Origin: Bacteroidales bacterium UBA3754
GTDB lineage: Bacteria; Bacteroidota; Bacteroidia; Bacteroidales; UBA1715
Assembly (NCBI GenBank): GCA_002371705.1
Contig: DFGI01000019.1
Coordinates: 17,181-81,180, forward strand
DNA length: 64,000 nucleotides
Reading direction: 5' to 3'
Shown here: one piece after another, positions 16,842 through 53,581 of the stretch
Position numbering within the stretch: position 1 is the first letter of the stretch
Layout: each line of letters starts with the position of its first letter
Translations under genes and position numbers: made by a program
Notes under the pieces: generated by a model
Seen by the model: only the letters and a program-made list of their open reading frames with translations
Told to the model about the DNA's origin: nothing
Databases searched by the model: none

Positions 16842-16922
16842 GTTTGAACGAAAACCTCGATTTGCTTATCCAGTTAAGCAATTTTGCATAAATTTTATTT
16901 AATGGATTATGCAGATTTTTGA

Positions 16923-16930
16923 TATTTTTG
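16923..16930 (+). promoter_or_regulatory. -7 box TATTTTTG for tadA
   Basis: Matches TAnnTTTG and lies 20 nt upstream of the ATG at 16951. This supports the shorter tadA start. Confidence 0.5.
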
Positions 16931-16950
16931 CTTACTGGAGTAAGCAAATT

Positions 16951-17394
16951 ATGGCAGAAAAAAAGACCGACGAATATTATATGGAGCAGGCGCTTGCGCA
17001 GGCGAAAATGGCGTACGAAAAGGACGAAGTACCCATTGGCTGTGTGATTGTGTGCGAGGGGCAAATCATAGCCCGTGCCCATAATCTTTCGGAAACGCTG
17101 AACGACCCAACCGCCCATGCCGAGATGCAGGCATTTACCATAGCCACGGATTTTCTTGGAGGAAAAAGTCTTCAAAAATGTACACTGTATGTGACGGTTG
17201 AGCCGTGCGTAATGTGTTGTGGTGCAGCATATTGGGAGCAATTAGGCAAAATCGTCTATGGCGCGTCCGACGTAAAACGACACGTTTCGGAACTGCACGA
17301 CAAAATCCTTCACCCCAAAACCGAAGTCGTTGGCGGCGTTCTCAAAGAACAATGCGAAGAACTGATGCAGAAGTTTTTTAAGGAAAAGCGGTAG
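16951..17394 (+). CDS. tadA: tRNA adenosine(34) deaminase
   Basis: MAEKKTDEYYMEQALAQAKMAYEKDEVPIGCVIV...; zinc-ligand motifs HAEM and PCVMCCGA. Confidence 0.9.
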   Translation: MAEKKTDEYYMEQALAQAKMAYEKDEVPIGCVIVCEGQIIARAHNLSETLNDPTAHAEMQAFTIATDFLGGKSLQKCTLYVTVEPCVMCCGAAYWEQLGKIVYGASDVKRHVSELHDKILHPKTEVVGGVLKEQCEELMQKFFKEKR

Positions 17395-17413
17395 TTTTAA
17401 AAGAAGAGGAATT

Positions 17414-17451
17414 TTACCTCACCAATTTAGTTAAATTGGAGTTGCCTATGA
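17414..17451. repeat. 38-bp direct repeat, copy 1 (orphan copy of the HTH gene 3' end)
   Basis: ttacctcaccaatttagttaaattggaGttgcctatga matches 18037-18074 at 37 of 38 positions. Read on the minus strand it would encode ...LIGNSNLTKLVR*, but a stop codon lies just upstream, so it is a remnant and not part of a gene. Confidence 0.9.
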
Positions 17452-17464
17452 GGTACTGCAAATA

Positions 17465-17749
17465 CTATGATTTAATTCTTTGAGTAAAGTCAGACCAATC
17501 TTCTACCTTAAATGCACGAATGTCGCGCCCCGATTTCCTAAACCAATCTATTTGTTTTAATGCGGTCATAGCATCGAACACAACGCCTAATCCATCTTCA
17601 TTGGAGTTTGTGAGATATACACTTCCTTGCGTCCAGAAAAACCCATATTTTTTCAAGACCTTTCCAATTTCAAAATAAGCATTATTATATTGTTCATTGA
17701 AGTTTTTCTTCAACTCGGCAATTTCCATATCAAAGGCAATAGCATACAT
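17465..17749 (-). CDS. vapD: VapD-family endoribonuclease (Cas2-like fold)
   Basis: 94 aa. [10 protein letters not shown]...[12 protein letters not shown]...[31 protein letters not shown] closely follows the pattern I recall for Haemophilus/Helicobacter VapD (MYAIAFD...QGS.Y...VRDIRAF....WSDFT). Confidence 0.85.
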
Positions 17750-17751
17750 AG

Positions 17752-17937
17752 TTACGCCAACTTAAAGTATTTCTGTTTGTTGAAATAAACTACTTTGTTC
17801 TCATTTGCTTCTGCATATATTACGATACCATTAAATGGATTGTCTTCAACGGTTTTTACAACACCGTCAATCCATTTGTCCATACCAGTAATGTTTGGTG
17901 AAATTTTTACCCGTGATCCAACTTTCAGTGTATTCAT
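17752..17937 (-). CDS. 61-aa protein of unknown function, upstream partner of vapD (candidate VapX-like antitoxin)
   Basis: Its stop lies 2 nt before the vapD ATG, and it has its own TATATTTG box 17 nt upstream. The sequence looks like a small beta-rich domain ([43 protein letters not shown]...). I recognise no family. Confidence 0.55.
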
Positions 17938-17954
17938 AATCGTTCTGTTTTCTG

Positions 17955-17962
17955 CAAATATA
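17955..17962 (-). promoter_or_regulatory. -7 box TATATTTG for the 61-aa ORF/vapD pair
   Basis: Reverse complement of caaatata, 17 nt upstream of the ATG at 17937. Confidence 0.55.
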
Positions 17963-18036
17963 TGCTAATTATTGAAATAAAAGCAACGGGGAATAGTAGA
18001 TTTCTTGTTTAGAAGTGACAGCGACAGGCGACTTGC

Positions 18037-18074
18037 TTACCTCACCAATTTAGTTAAATTGGAATTGCCTATGA
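18037..18074. repeat. 38-bp direct repeat, copy 2 (functional 3' end of the HTH gene)
   Basis: Matches 17414-17451 at 37 of 38 positions. Here it encodes the last 12 codons and the stop (IIGNSNLTKLVR*). Confidence 0.9.
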
Positions 18075-18357
18075 TGCGGAGAATTTCGGGGATTTTGTTC
18101 TCGTCAACTTCAAGTTGGAGTACAAATTTCTTTGCTTGTGGCTTTTCGTCGGCAGTTACAAACGGCGAGAAAAAGTTGTAATTCAATTCTTGCGAAACCG
18201 CAAATAATTCTTTCACATCCCACGAGTCATTTTTGAGTTTGCTTGTGAGGTTTTGCCTCGACATTCCTAACTTACGTGCCAATTCAGCCACAGTAACATT
18301 TTGTTGCACTGCAACTTTACGAATCCAATCTCCTATATGTAGTTCTTCTATATTCAT
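18037..18357 (-). CDS. Helix-turn-helix DNA-binding protein
   Basis: MNIEELHIGDWIRKVAVQQNVTVAELARKLGMSRQNLTSKLKNDSW...; the HTH core is TVAELARKLGMSRQNLTS. The ATG at 18357 is preferred over the track start. Confidence 0.7.
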   Translation of the reverse strand: MNIEELHIGDWIRKVAVQQNVTVAELARKLGMSRQNLTSKLKNDSWDVKELFAVSQELNYNFFSPFVTADEKPQAKKFVLQLEVDENKIPEILRIIGNSNLTKLVR

Positions 18358-18535
18358 ACCTGCAACTTGCAAAAGTTTTTATTGACAAAAACAAAAATAT
18401 TTTTACAAAAAGTTAAAGAAAATTTGCATCGGTGAAATTTATTTTTACTTTTGTAAAGTTAATTTTTACAAAAGTGCAAGAAAATATTGCACACTAAAAT
18501 TTATTCATTGTGTTTAATTAAAAAATGGAGGTATT

Positions 18536-19285
18536 ATGAAAACAGTTAAAATTCTAACTTTATGTCTTGCAGGTGTGTTTGGATTATATTCCTGCGGAAG
18601 TGACGACAAAGACGAGAAAAAAGAAGAAAAGAATAAGGTGTATTTGGTAAAGAGTCTTACCATCTCAGAAGGTGGTGACCATGATAAATATACTCTCGTT
18701 TATGAAAATGATAGAATCACAAATATCACACTTGTTGATTCTGACGGAGATACATACGCGGAAACGTTTTCATATCCTTCTGCAACATCCATTAATTGCA
18801 AAAGTGTAGACGGAGAAGGTGTAATTACAATGGATGCTACGGGGAACGTCATTTCAAAAGAAGAAGGTACAAATTTCGATGGCGATACGTATAAAGGTGT
18901 ATATTCTTTTATTGACGGGTATTTATCTAAAGAAAGTTGGGGTGAAAATAGTTATGACACTTATACTTGGTTAAATGGAAATCTTACATCTTTGAAAGAC
19001 ACATATGTATTTGAGGATGGAGAAGGCAAAGAAGAACGTGTAACTAAGATAGAATATTCCGATATTGAAAACAACACAAATATAGATTTCTATTTATGGT
19101 TATATAGTGGTGCAAATTATGCATATACTATTCAGTTTATGAAGAATGTTAGTAAAAACATACCAAGTTCAGTGAAATATGAGGAGGGATCACCTGCAAT
19201 CATATCAACCACATTAGATGAAAAAGGTCGTCCTTCAAAAATGATATATGACGGAGATACTTATACCTTTGAATATTACGATTAA
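18536..19285 (+). CDS. Lipoprotein of unknown function
   Basis: Lipobox GLYSC-GSDDKDEKK. The body is beta-rich and Y/D/G-rich, ending ...GRPSKMIYDGDTYTFEYYD. Family assignment is uncertain. Confidence 0.6.
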   Translation: MKTVKILTLCLAGVFGLYSCGSDDKDEKKEEKNKVYLVKSLTISEGGDHDKYTLVYENDRITNITLVDSDGDTYAETFSYPSATSINCKSVDGEGVITMDATGNVISKEEGTNFDGDTYKGVYSFIDGYLSKESWGENSYDTYTWLNGNLTSLKDTYVFEDGEGKEERVTKIEYSDIENNTNIDFYLWLYSGANYAYTIQFMKNVSKNIPSSVKYEEGSPAIISTTLDEKGRPSKMIYDGDTYTFEYYD

Positions 19286-19307
19286 TAATAGAAACTAATT
19301 TAGTTAG

Positions 19308-19347
19308 AAATAGGCAACCAATAAGGTTGCCTATTTTGTTTTTTTAC
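19308..19347 (+). terminator. Intrinsic terminator
   Basis: AAATAGGCAACC, loop AATAA, GGTTGCCTATTT, then TGTTTTTTT. Confidence 0.75.
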
Positions 19348-19385
19348 AGGATTTTTTATGTTTGCTAAAAATTTATAAAAGTATT

Positions 19386-19712
19386 ATGGATTTATTTGAT
19401 GTAAAAAACAAGTTAAGTGATTTGTTTGGAAATAAACAACATAGACTATCAATTGTTTTCAATAACGATGACAGACTCAATGGCCTTCTTTATATGGTCG
19501 TTTTATTTGAAGACGAACTAGTAATTGTGAAAAATAAAGAAGAAAGAGACGAATTAAATGAATCAAGAAAATCGGATGAATCTAATCGTATTCATTTGAG
19601 TGACGTAAAAGAAATATATGAAATAATAGGCACAGGGAAACTTTTAATTTATTCAAGCGAAAAAGATTTTATCATTTCCAAAGCTGAGTATGATAAAAGT
19701 TTTAAGCATTAA
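19386..19712 (+). CDS. Hypothetical protein (108 aa)
   Basis: The ORF is taken from its first ATG (MDLFDVKNKLSD...), because the track start is a TTG. No recognisable motif, so coding status is moderate. Confidence 0.45.
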   Translation: MDLFDVKNKLSDLFGNKQHRLSIVFNNDDRLNGLLYMVVLFEDELVIVKNKEERDELNESRKSDESNRIHLSDVKEIYEIIGTGKLLIYSSEKDFIISKAEYDKSFKH

Positions 19713-19753
19713 AACAGTAAAATAGAAAATAAGTTCAATATCGCCATTTCCCC

Positions 19754-19768
19754 AACGGAGTGGCGATT
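19754..19768. repeat. Cassette-boundary repeat R1, copy a
   Basis: aacggagtggcgatt is identical to 20607-20621. With the following bases the match is 19 of 22. It lies immediately 3' of the PIN gene stop. Confidence 0.7.
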
Positions 19769-19769
19769 G

Positions 19770-20207
19770 TTATTTGTCTTTATTGAGCAACCTTAAAATA
19801 GCAATCATTTCGGCAGGAGAAACCACCTTTGGTGTTTGAGGAAAATGTTTTTTGTTGCCAGTAATTAAAAAAGAATCTTCCACCGACAAAGTCACTTCGT
19901 AAAAAACAATGTCTTTCTCGTCAATAAAATTTTCAGACGATGTTGTTCGTTCCGTCGAAAGGCCATACGTTTCAAAGAAATGCAACCACTCCATCACCAT
20001 TTCCGGTGAGAAGTTGAATTTCTTTCGAAATAACACCTCTTTGTATTCGGCGAGAATCTCTTTGTTTACTAATGGTTGTAAAATACCTTTTGTTAGGTAA
20101 TCCAAAACCAGAATTGTTGCGGCATCGGTTTTGTGGGAATATAGTGCAGACACGATTACATTTGTGTCTATCACTGCATATATTTTGTCATTTGTCTTCT
20201 CTTGCAA
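19770..20207 (-). CDS. PIN-domain toxin (VapC-like)
   Basis: IYAVIDTNVIVSAL... near the N-terminus carries the PIN acidic residue. About 145 aa. It overlaps the upstream DinJ-family antitoxin gene by 20 nt. The start is a TTG, so the exact start is uncertain. Confidence 0.8.
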   Translation of the reverse strand: MQEKTNDKIYAVIDTNVIVSALYSHKTDAATILVLDYLTKGILQPLVNKEILAEYKEVLFRKKFNFSPEMVMEWLHFFETYGLSTERTTSSENFIDEKDIVFYEVTLSVEDSFLITGNKKHFPQTPKVVSPAEMIAILRLLNKDK

Positions 20208-20478
20208 GTTTGATTTCGTTATTTATATCGTCCAACGTCATGTGTAATCCACTTTTTTGTGCTTCCTCACGAAGTGCTAAAAATGCCTTACGCCCTTGTC
20301 GCAAGACGTCTTGTTCGTTGTCTAATTCAATTTCAAATGGTATTTTTCGTTTCCGAATCACCATTTTTGCGAAAATGTTAATGGCTGTGGTGGTTGACAT
20401 TCCAAATTCAGAACAGAGATAGTCAAAGTTTTTCTTCACCTCGCTATCCATTCTTACCGTAAAAGCTGTTTGTGCCAT
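20188..20478 (-). CDS. RelB/DinJ-family antitoxin
   Basis: MAQTAFTVRMDSEVKKNFDYLCSEFGMSTTTAINIFAKMVIRKRKIPFEI is the ribbon-helix-helix DinJ pattern. Confidence 0.85.
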   Translation of the reverse strand: MAQTAFTVRMDSEVKKNFDYLCSEFGMSTTTAINIFAKMVIRKRKIPFEIELDNEQDVLRQGRKAFLALREEAQKSGLHMTLDDINNEIKLAREDK

Positions 20479-20497
20479 AATTCAATCATTTTGGTTG

Positions 20498-20505
20498 CAA
20501 ATATA
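20498..20505 (-). promoter_or_regulatory. -7 box TATATTTG for the DinJ/PIN operon
   Basis: Reverse complement of caaatata, 19 nt upstream of the ATG at 20478. Confidence 0.55.
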
Positions 20506-20577
20506 CATTAAATAGAACCTAAATGCAATCTTTTAGACAAAAGTATTCACAGCAAGAACTTGATTACTTTTCTTTCT

Positions 20578-20597
20578 ATGTAAACTTTTTAATGAGG
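20578..20597. repeat. Cassette-boundary repeat R2, copy a
   Basis: atgtaaactttttaatgagg matches 21346-21365 at 20 of 20 positions. Confidence 0.9.
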
Positions 20598-20606
20598 TTT
20601 TTTCAA

Positions 20607-20621
20607 AACGGAGTGGCGATT
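20607..20621. repeat. Cassette-boundary repeat R1, copy b
   Basis: aacggagtggcgatt is identical to 19754-19768. It lies immediately 3' of the HigA-like gene stop and 9 bp after R2 copy a. Confidence 0.7.
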
Positions 20622-20625
20622 TTTA

Positions 20626-20955
20626 TTACCAGAGTGCTATTTTGCCAAATTTTCCAAAGTCAATGGTGGCGGTTTTGGCTCCAAGTGCCTTAAAAGCTTT
20701 TTCAATAGTGGCAAACGTCATATTTTTCCCATTTTCAATTCTCGACACTTGAGATTTTCGTATTCCCATACGTTCGCCAAGTTCTTCTTGCGTTAGATTC
20801 TCGCGTTTCCGCGCTGCTTTAATTGCCTCTCCAATGCGATATGCGTGCAGTGCATCCTCTACGTTTTTCTCTAATTCGTCACGTCGTGGCGAACCTGCTT
20901 TGCCGTAAAATTCATCAAGTAAATCTTCAAACGGTGTCAAATTCATCTGTGCCAT
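20626..20955 (-). CDS. XRE-family HTH antitoxin (HigA-like)
   Basis: ...RENLTQEELGERMGIRKSQVSRIENGKNMTFATIEKAFKALG is a classic Cro/C1 HTH. It sits downstream of a RelE/HigB-type toxin gene. Confidence 0.85.
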   Translation of the reverse strand: MAQMNLTPFEDLLDEFYGKAGSPRRDELEKNVEDALHAYRIGEAIKAARKRENLTQEELGERMGIRKSQVSRIENGKNMTFATIEKAFKALGAKTATIDFGKFGKIALW

Positions 20956-20966
20956 ATCGTCAAGTT

Positions 20967-21305
20967 TTATTTATTGTTGAAATATTCGTTTCTAATACTT
21001 TCCGCCTTTCTTATTTCTTTATTCGGCGTTTTTTGCGTTTTTTTTATTATTCCATGCGTTGCGACAATCAGAGATTCTGATTCTGTATCCCAAAATGCAA
21101 ACAAACGGTACGCTATTTTATTATACAATGTGCGAAACTCCCATATTTCAGTGTTTTCAAGTTTTTTAAATATTTCGTTATTCCTTTCACCGCCTTTTAT
21201 TCTACCAATGTTGTATGTAAATTTGTCCCTTGCCTGTTGGGGAATTGTGCGGAGAAATTCTGCCGCTTCATCAGTGAATAAAATGCTAATATTTCCGTTA
21301 ACCAT
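20967..21305 (-). CDS. RelE/ParE-superfamily toxin (HigB / phage Gp49-like)
   Basis: 112 aa. ...IWEFRTLYNKIAYRLFAFWD...LIVATHGIIKKTQKTP is the Gp49/HigB pattern. The toxin-first gene order is typical of higBA. Confidence 0.85.
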   Translation of the reverse strand: MVNGNISILFTDEAAEFLRTIPQQARDKFTYNIGRIKGGERNNEIFKKLENTEIWEFRTLYNKIAYRLFAFWDTESESLIVATHGIIKKTQKTPNKEIRKAESIRNEYFNNK

Positions 21306-21322
21306 ATTTTTATTTTGTAGTA

Positions 21323-21330
21323 CAAAGATA
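21323..21330 (-). promoter_or_regulatory. -7 box TATCTTTG for the HigB/HigA operon
   Basis: Reverse complement of caaagata, 17 nt upstream of the ATG at 21305. Confidence 0.55.
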
Positions 21331-21345
21331 CAAAAGTTTCCAAAA

Positions 21346-21365
21346 ATGTAAACTTTTTAATGAGG
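21346..21365. repeat. Cassette-boundary repeat R2, copy b
   Basis: atgtaaactttttaatgagg matches 20578-20597 at 20 of 20 positions. Confidence 0.9.
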
Positions 21366-21380
21366 ATTTGATGAATGATG

Positions 21381-21655
21381 AAATATGTCTGAGCCTTTCA
21401 GGCTCATTATAATGGAGGCGCAGGAGCCTATTCTACGGCTATGCCGCAGGGAATTTCTGTCCGAGCCATTCGGGCTCTTTCCTCCATCGAATGCTTCTCC
21501 GATTAATAATTTCATGAACAGCCTGAAAGGCTGCGACAAATATACCCCAATGGCATCGCCTTGGGCGCCCCAGGGCAATTCAATAGCAGAATTATGCTCA
21601 TTGCTCCAATTATCTTCCGAGAGAATATGCAGCCAGAATGGCTGCGACAGATATA
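21381..21655. repeat. Cluster of four REP/BIME-like hairpin units (two per orientation) plus a GC palindrome
   Basis: Unit consensus is AGCCnGAAnGGCTnnGACAnAnAT. U1 at 21381-21404 (minus strand): agcctgaaaggctcagacatattt. U2 at 21452-21476 (minus strand): agcccgaatggctcggacagaaatt. U3 at 21520-21544 (plus strand): agcctgaaaggctgcgacaaatata. U4 at 21631-21655 (plus strand): agccagaatggctgcgacagatata. There is also a 10-bp palindrome tgggcgccca at 21563-21572. The only ORFs here are two mutually antisense ones. Confidence 0.75.
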
Positions 21656-21774
21656 GCTTGAATATTGCGACCATCATAGTATGCGATTCTTTGCGACAAA
21701 ATTACAGATTTCTTACGGAAAAGCGGTAGCCATTAAAAATAAATCTGTATTTTCGTGAACAAAATTTTAAGGAT

Positions 21775-22422
21775 ATGAAAAACGGTAATCTAATCGTAAA
21801 CATTATTTTCGGAGCGGCAATTGTTTTGCTGTTCGTGCTGTATGCAAAAAAACCTTCTGCCGAGGCAGTAAAAGAACCTGTTACAACCGAAGTCGATACT
21901 TCGCTCGATGCTCTATTCGCCGACGAAGAAATGGTTGAGGCAAATTTCCCAATTGCATACGTAATTGTTGATTCGGTAATGCATAACTATTTGTATTATC
22001 AGAAGTTAGAGAAACAATACCAAAATTTGGTTTCTTCGGAAGAAGCAAAATTGCAGAAGAAAGCGGAACAATTCCAAAAAGATGTTGAGGATTTTCAATA
22101 TCAAATTGAGAAACGAATCATTACGTCTGCCGACGCTCAGGCAAAAGAGGCGGAACTGGGGCAACGTCAGCAGAATTTGTACGCCGAACAACAGAAAAAA
22201 CAACAGGAATTGGCTGTGAAAGAGCAAAAACTTCTTGACCAGCTGATTGACAGCGTTCACGCCTGCATTAAGTTCTACAATGCCGACGGCAAATACAAAA
22301 TTATTCTGAACAATGCGTACCAAAGCAGTGTGTTGTATGCCGAAGAGCAGTTGAACATCACCAACGACATTCTCAAGGTGATGAATGCACGATACAATGC
22401 GGCAATTCAAAAGAAAAAATAA
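21775..22422 (+). CDS. OmpH/Skp-family periplasmic chaperone
   Basis: An N-terminal hydrophobic anchor/signal followed by a long lysine- and glutamine-rich helical region. The length and composition are typical of Bacteroidota OmpH-family proteins. Confidence 0.7.
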   Translation: MKNGNLIVNIIFGAAIVLLFVLYAKKPSAEAVKEPVTTEVDTSLDALFADEEMVEANFPIAYVIVDSVMHNYLYYQKLEKQYQNLVSSEEAKLQKKAEQFQKDVEDFQYQIEKRIITSADAQAKEAELGQRQQNLYAEQQKKQQELAVKEQKLLDQLIDSVHACIKFYNADGKYKIILNNAYQSSVLYAEEQLNITNDILKVMNARYNAAIQKKK

Positions 22423-53011: not shown

Positions 53012-53581
53012 TCAGAACTTCGACATAAATTTGTAGAAATAGTCCTTATTTTCAATGGAGAATTGATTTTTCATTCCCAAAGCTATGGGAATAAATTTAT
53101 TTTCGGAATTATAGACCAAAAACCATTTGTCGGCTTCATTTTTATAGTTGTTCCAAAAATTTTCCTTGCTTCGGTAGTAACGGCGGATTACATCGCGGTC
53201 TGGCACAAAGTGACCGCCTTTCAGCACACGCTCCTTAATACGCTCAATGCACACTTCGGGGGAATATAGAAACACATACACGAGTGTCACATCGTAGCCT
53301 TCTTTGTGGAAATCGTCCATCATTTTCGTTAAATATGTGCCCGACAATGTACTTTCTATTAATACACTTTCTCCTCGTTTTTTATATTCTTCAAGTTGTT
53401 TGAAAAAGATTTTTCCCGCGCTTACACTCACTTTGCTCATATTCACAGGGTCAATGGTCTTGGCGATTTCGTCGGCATTGAGGCACGCCATAGGATGCAG
53501 CTCTATGTAGCTTTGCGTAAATGTTGTTTTTCCCGAACCATTCGGACCTCCAATGATAACCAATTCTTTTGCTTCTGCCAT
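53012..53581 (-). CDS. Zeta-toxin-like / COG4185-type P-loop kinase
   Basis: MAEAKELVIIGGPNGSGKTTF carries the Walker A motif. The 189-aa length and ...LIESTLSG... (ESVLIESTLSG) resemble zeta-toxin-family ATPases. Confidence 0.7.
   Translation of the reverse strand: MAEAKELVIIGGPNGSGKTTFTQSYIELHPMACLNADEIAKTIDPVNMSKVSVSAGKIFFKQLEEYKKRGESVLIESTLSGTYLTKMMDDFHKEGYDVTLVYVFLYSPEVCIERIKERVLKGGHFVPDRDVIRRYYRSKENFWNNYKNEADKWFLVYNSENKFIPIALGMKNQFSIENKDYFYKFMSKF

Follow-up and report, generated by a model that had tools for sequence, protein, structure and literature searches.

The DNA analysed here (the window, 64,000 nt of contig DFGI01000019.1 from Bacteroidales bacterium UBA3754) carries a segment of 4335 bp between tadA, the gene of a tRNA adenosine deaminase, and skp. 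This segment is accessory and foreign in composition; it is inserted at the tadA stop codon with a duplicate of the tadA end as its border, has a mosaic gene content and is integrase-less in every variant. We lean, with modest confidence, towards regarding it as an acquired, non-autonomous genomic islet which entered in a Campbell-type event at an att-like tadA 3' end, resembles a cis-mobilizable element (CIME), and forms a hot spot of exchange. An earlier note, made from the letters of the window, had interpreted the duplication as the scar of site-specific integration. The insertion at the repeat is borne out by empty sites in related strains, while site-specific recombination at the tadA end is what we infer.

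To compare the tadA-skp region among relatives we collected contigs of the same clade by exact-protein look-ups with TadA and Skp, which led to rumen and gut metagenomes and to metagenome-assembled genomes at NCBI. The comparison set comprises 135 fetched loci (L numbers denote individual loci or contigs). A search for loci in which tadA is followed directly by the sequence beyond the islet, as proposed in the earlier note, yielded three contigs of the same clade, L007 (711 nt), L128 (124.7 kb) and L129 (57.9 kb). In these empty sites the tadA stop codon TAG is joined directly to CCATTAAAAATAAATCTG and then to skp, which equals the window from 21730 onward, and the spacer reads CCATT(A/T)AAAATAAATCTGTATTTTCGTGAAC...ATG, where ATG is the start of skp. 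All three contigs connect position 17394 straight to 21730 (junction ...TTTTTTAAGGAAAAGCGGTAG followed by CCATTAAAAAT), and their site corresponds to the left side of attL, the core and the right side of attR. In the genome collection, the three closest species (TadA identity 92-94%) have 11 nt between tadA and skp, and this adjacency is ancestral in them. The empty sites, together with the adjacent tadA and skp genes in these species, show that 17395-21729 is an insertion with its borders exactly at the repeat. An assembly artefact was considered and ruled out, since the same structure recurs in assemblies of ENA, JGI, Logan and NCBI that are independent of each other. Two of the contigs with the empty site measure 58 and 125 kb, and an assembly made with k = 141 cannot be chimeric across a 21-nt repeat. 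The window itself is 100% identical to ENA contig ERZ12302853 NODE_6 (322 kb) from a rumen-type metagenome.

The repeat at the borders terminates precisely at the tadA stop codon. As had been described before, the last 27 nt of tadA recur at 21705-21729, with 23 out of 25 bases identical and one 2-nt gap. If the copies are aligned in frame and ungapped, 21 out of 27 bases agree and the encoded ends read YRFLTEKR and QKFFKEKR, each followed by the stop codon. The 13-mer GGAAAAGCGGTAG, with one mismatch allowed, occurs at only two sites in 64 kb, and both are tadA-end copies (0.04 expected); the concern that the match might be a common genomic motif is thereby answered for the window. Local alignment of the tadA tail with the rest of the window gave a best score of 33 and a runner-up of 22-24, and a score of 33 was attained in one out of 200 random 64-kb sequences. 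The uniqueness of the 13-mer, the alignment score and the empty sites together rule out a chance repeat. The final 11 nt of the right copy are invariant across the islet-bearing contigs, and its left part varies. No further similarity to tadA was found upstream of this copy, so no longer tadA pseudogene lies there, and no known RNA family or tRNA fragment was found at the islet borders.

The right copy can also pair with the native spacer (ACAGATTT...AAATCTGT, window 21696-21756; compare L128 10414-10470). The resulting hairpin has the same topology as that of the tadA end and the spacer in the empty sites, and the 2-nt gap betters the stem. Its folding z-scores are not significant, and it may represent a terminator or a leader element of skp.

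The base composition points to a foreign origin as well. The GC content of the islet is 0.348 compared to 0.413 for the remaining window, and falls under the minimum of 0.355 observed in 1021 non-overlapping windows of equal size. This windowed calculation confirms the compositional break, which had been noticed before as a higher AT content of the segment relative to its flanks. The difference is also found at third codon positions, where the GC content is 0.22-0.40 in the islet genes and 0.45-0.53 in tadA, leuS, skp and ubiX.

Scans of all open reading frames (ORFs) of the islet with Pfam, NCBIfam and PADLOC found no recombinase, and neither did those of 20 further large ORFs of the window. 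The claim that the islet lacks an integrase, and is either decayed or mobilised in trans, holds across the approximately 14 islet architectures seen on two genome backbones among related contigs: an integrase occurs in none of them, and no integrase-bearing element was found at tadA in any fetched locus. The sole recombinase-type gene of any variant encodes an IS200-like Y1 transposase and is present in some strains only. With copies of the target 3' end at both ends, an empty attB site, and neither integrase nor transfer genes, the closest known class is that of CIMEs, or decayed integrative elements located at 3' ends of protein genes. A characteristic of this class that was not found is a link to an ICE (integrative and conjugative element) or IME (integrative and mobilizable element) of the same att specificity.

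Table 1. Features of the tadA-skp region, in window coordinates (HTH, helix-turn-helix).
Feature	Position	Strand	Remarks
tadA, tRNA adenosine deaminase, target gene	16951-17394	+	Pfam MafB19-deam and dCMP_cyt_deam_1
Left (attL-like) copy, native last 27 nt of tadA including stop	17368-17394	+	CAGAAGTTTTTTAAGGAAAAGCGGTAG; identical in empty-site contigs
Inserted segment, 4335 bp	17395-21729		Missing from empty-site contigs; GC 0.348
38-nt duplicate of HTH gene 3' end, left border of vapD module	17414-17451		97% identical to 18037-18074; these two sites only
VapD / Cas2-superfamily protein, 94 aa	17465-17749	-	PF09827 33 bits; NCBIfam VapD 37 bits (cutoff 100)
61-aa ORF, directly upstream of vapD	17752-17937	-	Co-occurs with vapD in all related loci
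106-aa Cro/C1-type HTH regulator	18037-18357	-	Weak HTH_26/HTH_3 matches
Swappable central cassette	18359-19735	+	249-aa lipoprotein (18536-19285), 108-aa ORF (19386-19712), divergent promoter/operator with inverted repeats (18393-18466)
Terminator-like hairpin half	19747-19774		AACGGAGTGGCGATT; motif again at 20600-20627, module-junction remnant; full hairpin in L105
RelB antitoxin and PIN_3 toxin	19770-20478	-	RelB 20188-20478, PIN_3 19770-20207; Pfam; several variants without the pair
Junction repeat, 24 nt	20578-20601		ATGTAAACTTTTTAATGAGG; second copy 21346-21369; both bracket higBA
HigA-like HTH_3 antitoxin and Gp49/HigB-like toxin	20626-21305	-	HigA-like 20626-20955, HigB-like 20967-21305; Pfam
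Hairpin cluster, four units in two inverted pairs	21383-21655		AGCCnGAAnGGCT and GCGACArATATA; motif only inside the islet in 135 loci
Right (attR-like) decayed tadA 3'-end copy	21705-21729	+	CAGATTTCTTACGGAAAAGCGGTAG; seen in every islet-bearing contig
Native 45-nt tadA-skp spacer, then skp (OmpH)	21730-22422	+	skp 21775-22422; PF03938; joined to tadA stop in empty sites

Among related strains the islet is organized in modules that are present or absent and that are flanked by direct repeats of 24-38 nt. The module with vapD and the 61-aa ORF (623 bp) lies between the two copies of the HTH gene end (17414-17451 and 18037-18074). It is cleanly missing in L098, L004/L005 and L126, where tadA is followed by a spacer of 19-23 nt and then by the HTH gene. 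The 38-nt duplicate begins exactly at the complement of the HTH stop codon and holds the palindrome CCAATTTAGTTAAATTGG. The higBA module is missing in L105/L125. Between the breakpoints 18358 and 19736 the central cassette is replaced by unrelated gene sets, with products of 141 and 263 aa, 247 and 232 aa, 194, 207 and 942 aa (M4 peptidase), 162, 108 and 79 aa, or 230 aa. Parts of the islet are 95-98% identical between lineages whose flanks are just 89-92% identical, and the tadA tree and the skp tree are in conflict. A lateral exchange of islet parts among lineages by flanking homology is evident.

Units of the HTH gene and a lipoprotein gene, some of them with vapD/61-aa and RelB, are also present at unrelated chromosomal sites (L110 5650-9450, L130 9083-10321, L131 and L132). 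The contexts outside tadA observed in related Bacteroidales are GT25 with YjbR and a deacetylase gene with Omp85, and neither tadA nor a recombinase was found near the units of L110 and L130-L132. The occurrence at unrelated sites indicates that the unit has moved between loci.

A sister lineage (L105-L108, L125 and L127) has three tadA-end copies; the third of them, TTTTTTAAGGGGAAACGGTAGATTTACAA (e.g. L125 11222-11250), is internal and lies between the main unit and a unit that is a remnant. This remnant contains an operator region that is 79% identical to the intergenic region between the HTH gene and the 194-aa gene in L126, together with a 45%-identical paralog of this 194-aa cassette gene. 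Both units of the tandem array are without an integrase. The arrangement has the form attL - unit 1 - attI - unit 2 - attR, as reported for decayed elements that accrete in tandem (PMC5704250, PMC7563491), and it suggests that the tadA-end site has been used more than once. In L125 the 3' remnant of a Y1 gene adjoins the internal copy, with the spacer and the HTH gene following, and the 5' remnant lies 2.5 kb off beside the hairpin cluster, which places a whole islet segment within a split Y1 gene.

We propose that the islet would have entered between tadA and skp by conservative, Campbell-type recombination between the last approximately 13-27 nt of tadA (attB-like) and a tadA-end-like sequence on the incoming DNA. 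Such an event would leave the native tadA end at the left border (attL-like) and the diverged copy at the right border (attR-like). The enzyme would most likely be a site-specific recombinase that acted in trans or has since been lost, in which case the islet would be a decayed integrative element of the CIME type. As comparison of the strains shows, the locus has since behaved as a hot spot: the vapD/61-aa and higBA modules are gained or lost between the direct repeats of 24-38 nt, the cassette divergent from the HTH regulator is swapped wholesale, and pieces of the islet are exchanged between lineages. This diversification probably came from recombination at the short repeats and from homologous replacement, with the highly conserved tadA and skp flanks as anchors.

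Several observations weigh against an entry of this kind. No integrase with specificity for the tadA end was found. The junction expected for a circular form (attP-type, ...ACAGATTTCTTACGGAAAAGCGGTAG followed by TTTTAAAAGAAGAGGAATT) was not seen in a 21-mer scan of JGI metagenomes, which returned attL, attR and attB contexts only, and a search for a phage or plasmid attP in IMG/VR gave chance matches only. The exact core is short, with 13 nt. A downstream duplicate of the tadA end within 10 kb was found at none of 80 other Bacteroidota tadA loci, which leaves a role of tadA as a general att site in this phylum unsupported. The HTH-end duplicate measures 38 nt in the window, 138 nt in L123 and no fewer than 151 nt in L132, a variation for which a fixed att site is no better explanation than RecA-type homology or an accretion with later deletion. 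Inside the split Y1 gene of L125, the internal copy has a 3' remnant of 21 nt on one side and a 5' remnant of approximately 60 nt on the other, and with this position it may be passenger DNA derived from the locus of a different strain and not an att scar. Finally, the lineages with an empty site are not basal in the tadA and skp trees, so that gain and precise loss are indistinguishable.

The strongest alternative, to which we assign a clearly smaller yet still appreciable probability, dispenses with a dedicated recombinase. Here 25-150 nt of homology between the chromosome and circular or incoming fragments of the locus would drive Campbell insertions and deletions of the RecA type, and the duplicates of the tadA and HTH ends would be either the homology that was used or passenger pieces of another strain's locus. 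The variable length of the HTH-end duplicate, the clear recombination among lineages and the absence of an integrase from every variant all agree with this explanation, as does the internal tadA-end copy of L125, which includes 8 nt of islet spacer inside the split Y1 gene. It is generally known, however, that 13 exact nt (21-23 out of 25-27 nt) are below the length for efficient RecA recombination. The explanation also does not account for the way in which the very first tadA-like sequence reached the distal end of foreign, AT-rich DNA, and the recurrence inside the same approximately 21 nt is an argument for targeting.

A broader interpretation, which we consider unlikely, takes the tadA-skp islet and the dispersed HTH-lipoprotein units together as a recombinase-less cassette-exchange system of rumen Bacteroidales that relies on a host recombinase in trans. 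With the same small likelihood, its modules would be bounded by 25-40-nt copies of the stop-proximal ends of tadA and of the HTH gene, and would be excised and re-inserted there. If this were true, the system would be a chromosomal analogue of Xer-driven pdif modules and of integrative mobile elements exploiting Xer (IMEX), and the lack of an integrase in about 14 architectures would be accounted for.

It is improbable in our view that the islet is instead ancestral to the clade, with the empty sites as secondary deletions and with the tadA-like 25 nt, upstream of skp, as a regulatory hairpin or promoter element of convergent origin. One may argue for this from the empty sites, which are nested among islet-bearing lineages or sister to them, from the invariant last 11 nt of the right copy, and from the hairpin topology that this copy and the spacer share with the empty site, including the improved pairing due to the 2-nt gap. 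The tadA-skp adjacency in the three nearest species, the foreign composition and the insignificant folding z-scores speak against it, and a precise deletion needs a pre-existing repeat, which would be left unexplained.

The four hairpin units near the skp-proximal end had been described as a REP-like (repetitive extragenic palindromic) cluster. The cluster is real, but a dispersed REP family is not supported, as the motif was found nowhere else in the 64-kb window or in the 135 fetched loci. In several sibling strains a gene for a 151-aa IS200-like Y1 transposase lies directly left of the cluster (equivalent to approximately 21369), and in these strains the hairpins are tied to this transposase and not to a genome-wide REP family. 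The protein from L010 (gene at 1874-2329) scores 54 bits for IS200 (cutoff 55) and 21 bits for REP_Tyr_transpos, the RAYT family (cutoff 80). The arrangement resembles IS200/IS605 and REP-RAYT systems in that a Y1 (HUH) transposase gene stands beside clustered, inversely oriented hairpins, and differs from them in a Y1 protein below both family cutoffs, in hairpins that are not dispersed, and in the lack of the gene in the window.

The least probable of the explanations is that this IS200/IS605-family transposase and the hairpins mobilised all or part of the islet in single-stranded form, with insertion on the 3' side of a short motif (for example GGTAG or GGTAA). In its favour, no variant has any other recombinase-type gene, the Y1 gene invariably adjoins the hairpin cluster on the side of skp, its remnants flank rearrangement points, and each of the two duplicated targets terminates with GGTA(G/A) and the stop codon. 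Against it, both curated cutoffs are missed, the window and many of the variants are without the gene, the motif is confined to the islet in the 135 loci, a matching set of hairpins at the left end is not evident, and IS200/IS605 elements are not known to make duplications of 25-38 nt.

Other classes of elements were rejected. Integrons possess an IntI integrase with an attI site and carry attC sites at the cassette ends; in the islet IntI is absent, and the junction repeats differ from each other and are not attC-like imperfect palindromes. DDE transposons are recognized by terminal inverted repeats and a target duplication of 2-14 bp, while in our case no inverted repeat pairs the ends, the duplicates are 25-38 nt long and the islet of the window contains no transposase. 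The search for a known plasmid or phage origin led only to the HigBA module, the DNA of which is approximately 70% identical to RelE/ParE-type toxin genes on small Bacteroides and Parabacteroides plasmids.

Returning to the genes of the islet, domain scans with Pfam and NCBIfam agree with the gene list given in the earlier note. It had counted three toxin-antitoxin-type modules. If an adjacent pair with the expected domains is required for a type II system, RelB with PIN_3 and the Gp49/HigB-like protein with HTH_3 qualify as two canonical pairs. The third is reached only when VapD and the 61-aa ORF are counted, where the VapD/Cas2 domain is the only part of this definition that is found. The 61-aa ORF has no family match in Pfam, NCBIfam or PADLOC, and is a putative partner or antitoxin of VapD. 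No complete known defence system was recognized, as PADLOC yields only Cas2-like and HTH matches.

The 106-aa HTH regulator is the most conserved gene of the islet, with an identical protein in 111 blocks of the collection (22 contigs read). Its homologs form 14 clusters only, every one at least 84% identical. In this narrow family no distant homolog beside an integrase was found, and the contexts of L110 and L130-L132 are without a recombinase. The divergent intergenic region between the HTH and the lipoprotein gene (18393-18466) contains 32-nt inverted repeats and 30-nt direct repeats, which are probably operator sites of the regulator. Judged from the domains, the islet may serve as a carrier of addiction or defence-type toxin-antitoxin pairs together with an HTH-controlled, strain-specific cassette for a surface lipoprotein.

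The target gene encodes 147 aa from the ATG at 16951, and the longest ORF begins at 16909. An identical TadA of 147 aa occurs in 206 blocks of the collection (approximately 23 contigs read) and sits on three genome backbones, namely leuS-tadA as in the window, metH...tadA, and hipBA-tadA, the last of which is the backbone with the empty site. The upstream side of tadA is strain-variable too. An AAA_14/DUF4143 ATPase gene or a hipBA pair lies there between the upstream core gene and tadA (L124 7968-9946; L126 8775-9971; L128 8187-9899), so tadA has variable DNA on both flanks. A 22-nt inverted repeat, ATTTGCTTATCCAGTTAAGCAA / TTGCTTACTGGAGTAAGCAAAT, is located at 16860-16949 of the window, just upstream of and overlapping the tadA start. 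Elsewhere in the window, a 189-aa ORF with Zeta-toxin/AAA_33 domains (53012-53581, minus strand) may be another locus of the toxin-antitoxin type.

We consider the finding sound yet unsurprising, that is, an ordinary decayed genomic islet which is well documented. Its value lies in a clean, fully bounded, lone islet without an integrase, for which the filled, the empty and the tandem state are all documented. Standard island finders key on integrases and so miss such islets. The tadA-skp junction concentrates strain-level variation in an uncultured clade of rumen Bacteroidales, in the form of toxin-antitoxin genes and of HTH-controlled cassettes for surface lipoproteins or a protease. Discovery of an enzyme that recombines these short gene-end repeats in trans would establish an integration specificity new to Bacteroidota, and possibly an att site of practical use.

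Among known systems, CIMEs and decayed remnants of ICEs and IMEs have been described at 3' ends of protein genes in Streptococcus salivarius and S. thermophilus, among them fda, rpsI and rpmG (PMC5704250, PMC7563491). According to the same studies CIMEs measure 1.2-13 kb and carry cargo genes, may form tandem arrays with an internal att site, and are common, being overlooked when they occur alone (PMC5704250, PMC7563491). Like them, the islet is bounded by direct repeats of the target gene's 3' end and has neither an integrase nor transfer genes. It differs from them in its shorter, decayed repeats, in the nested repeats of a second gene's 3' end inside the element, in the uncultured rumen Bacteroidales host, and in that no cognate ICE or IME has been identified.

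In the genus Bacteroides, NBU1, NBU2 and Tn4555 insert at a gene 3' end via a common core of approximately 13-14 bp and are flanked by short direct repeats. These elements of approximately 10-12 kb have their own tyrosine integrase and mobilisation genes, and NBU1 and NBU2 target tRNA genes. Compared with them, the islet belongs to the same phylum and shows the same type of short-core repeat at a gene 3' end, without an integrase. Integrase-free hot spots between core genes, also called core defence hot spots, are a concept from pan-genomes of E. coli and Pseudomonas. The tadA-skp locus is similar to these with its fixed flanks (tadA and skp), its alternative cargos including toxin-antitoxin genes, the missing recombinase and the exchange by flanking homology; the discrete insertion scar and the clean empty sites set it apart, as does the PADLOC result.

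The pdif modules of Acinetobacter plasmids and IMEX are small, recombinase-less, often equipped with toxin-antitoxin pairs, and make use of short recombination sites and a host enzyme. Sites of the dif type comprise 28 bp, with two arms around a 6-bp spacer. In the islet no dif-like site of the 11-6-11 form was recognized, where no comparison with the Bacteroidales dif consensus was made, and its repeats are direct copies of gene 3' ends that reside on the chromosome.

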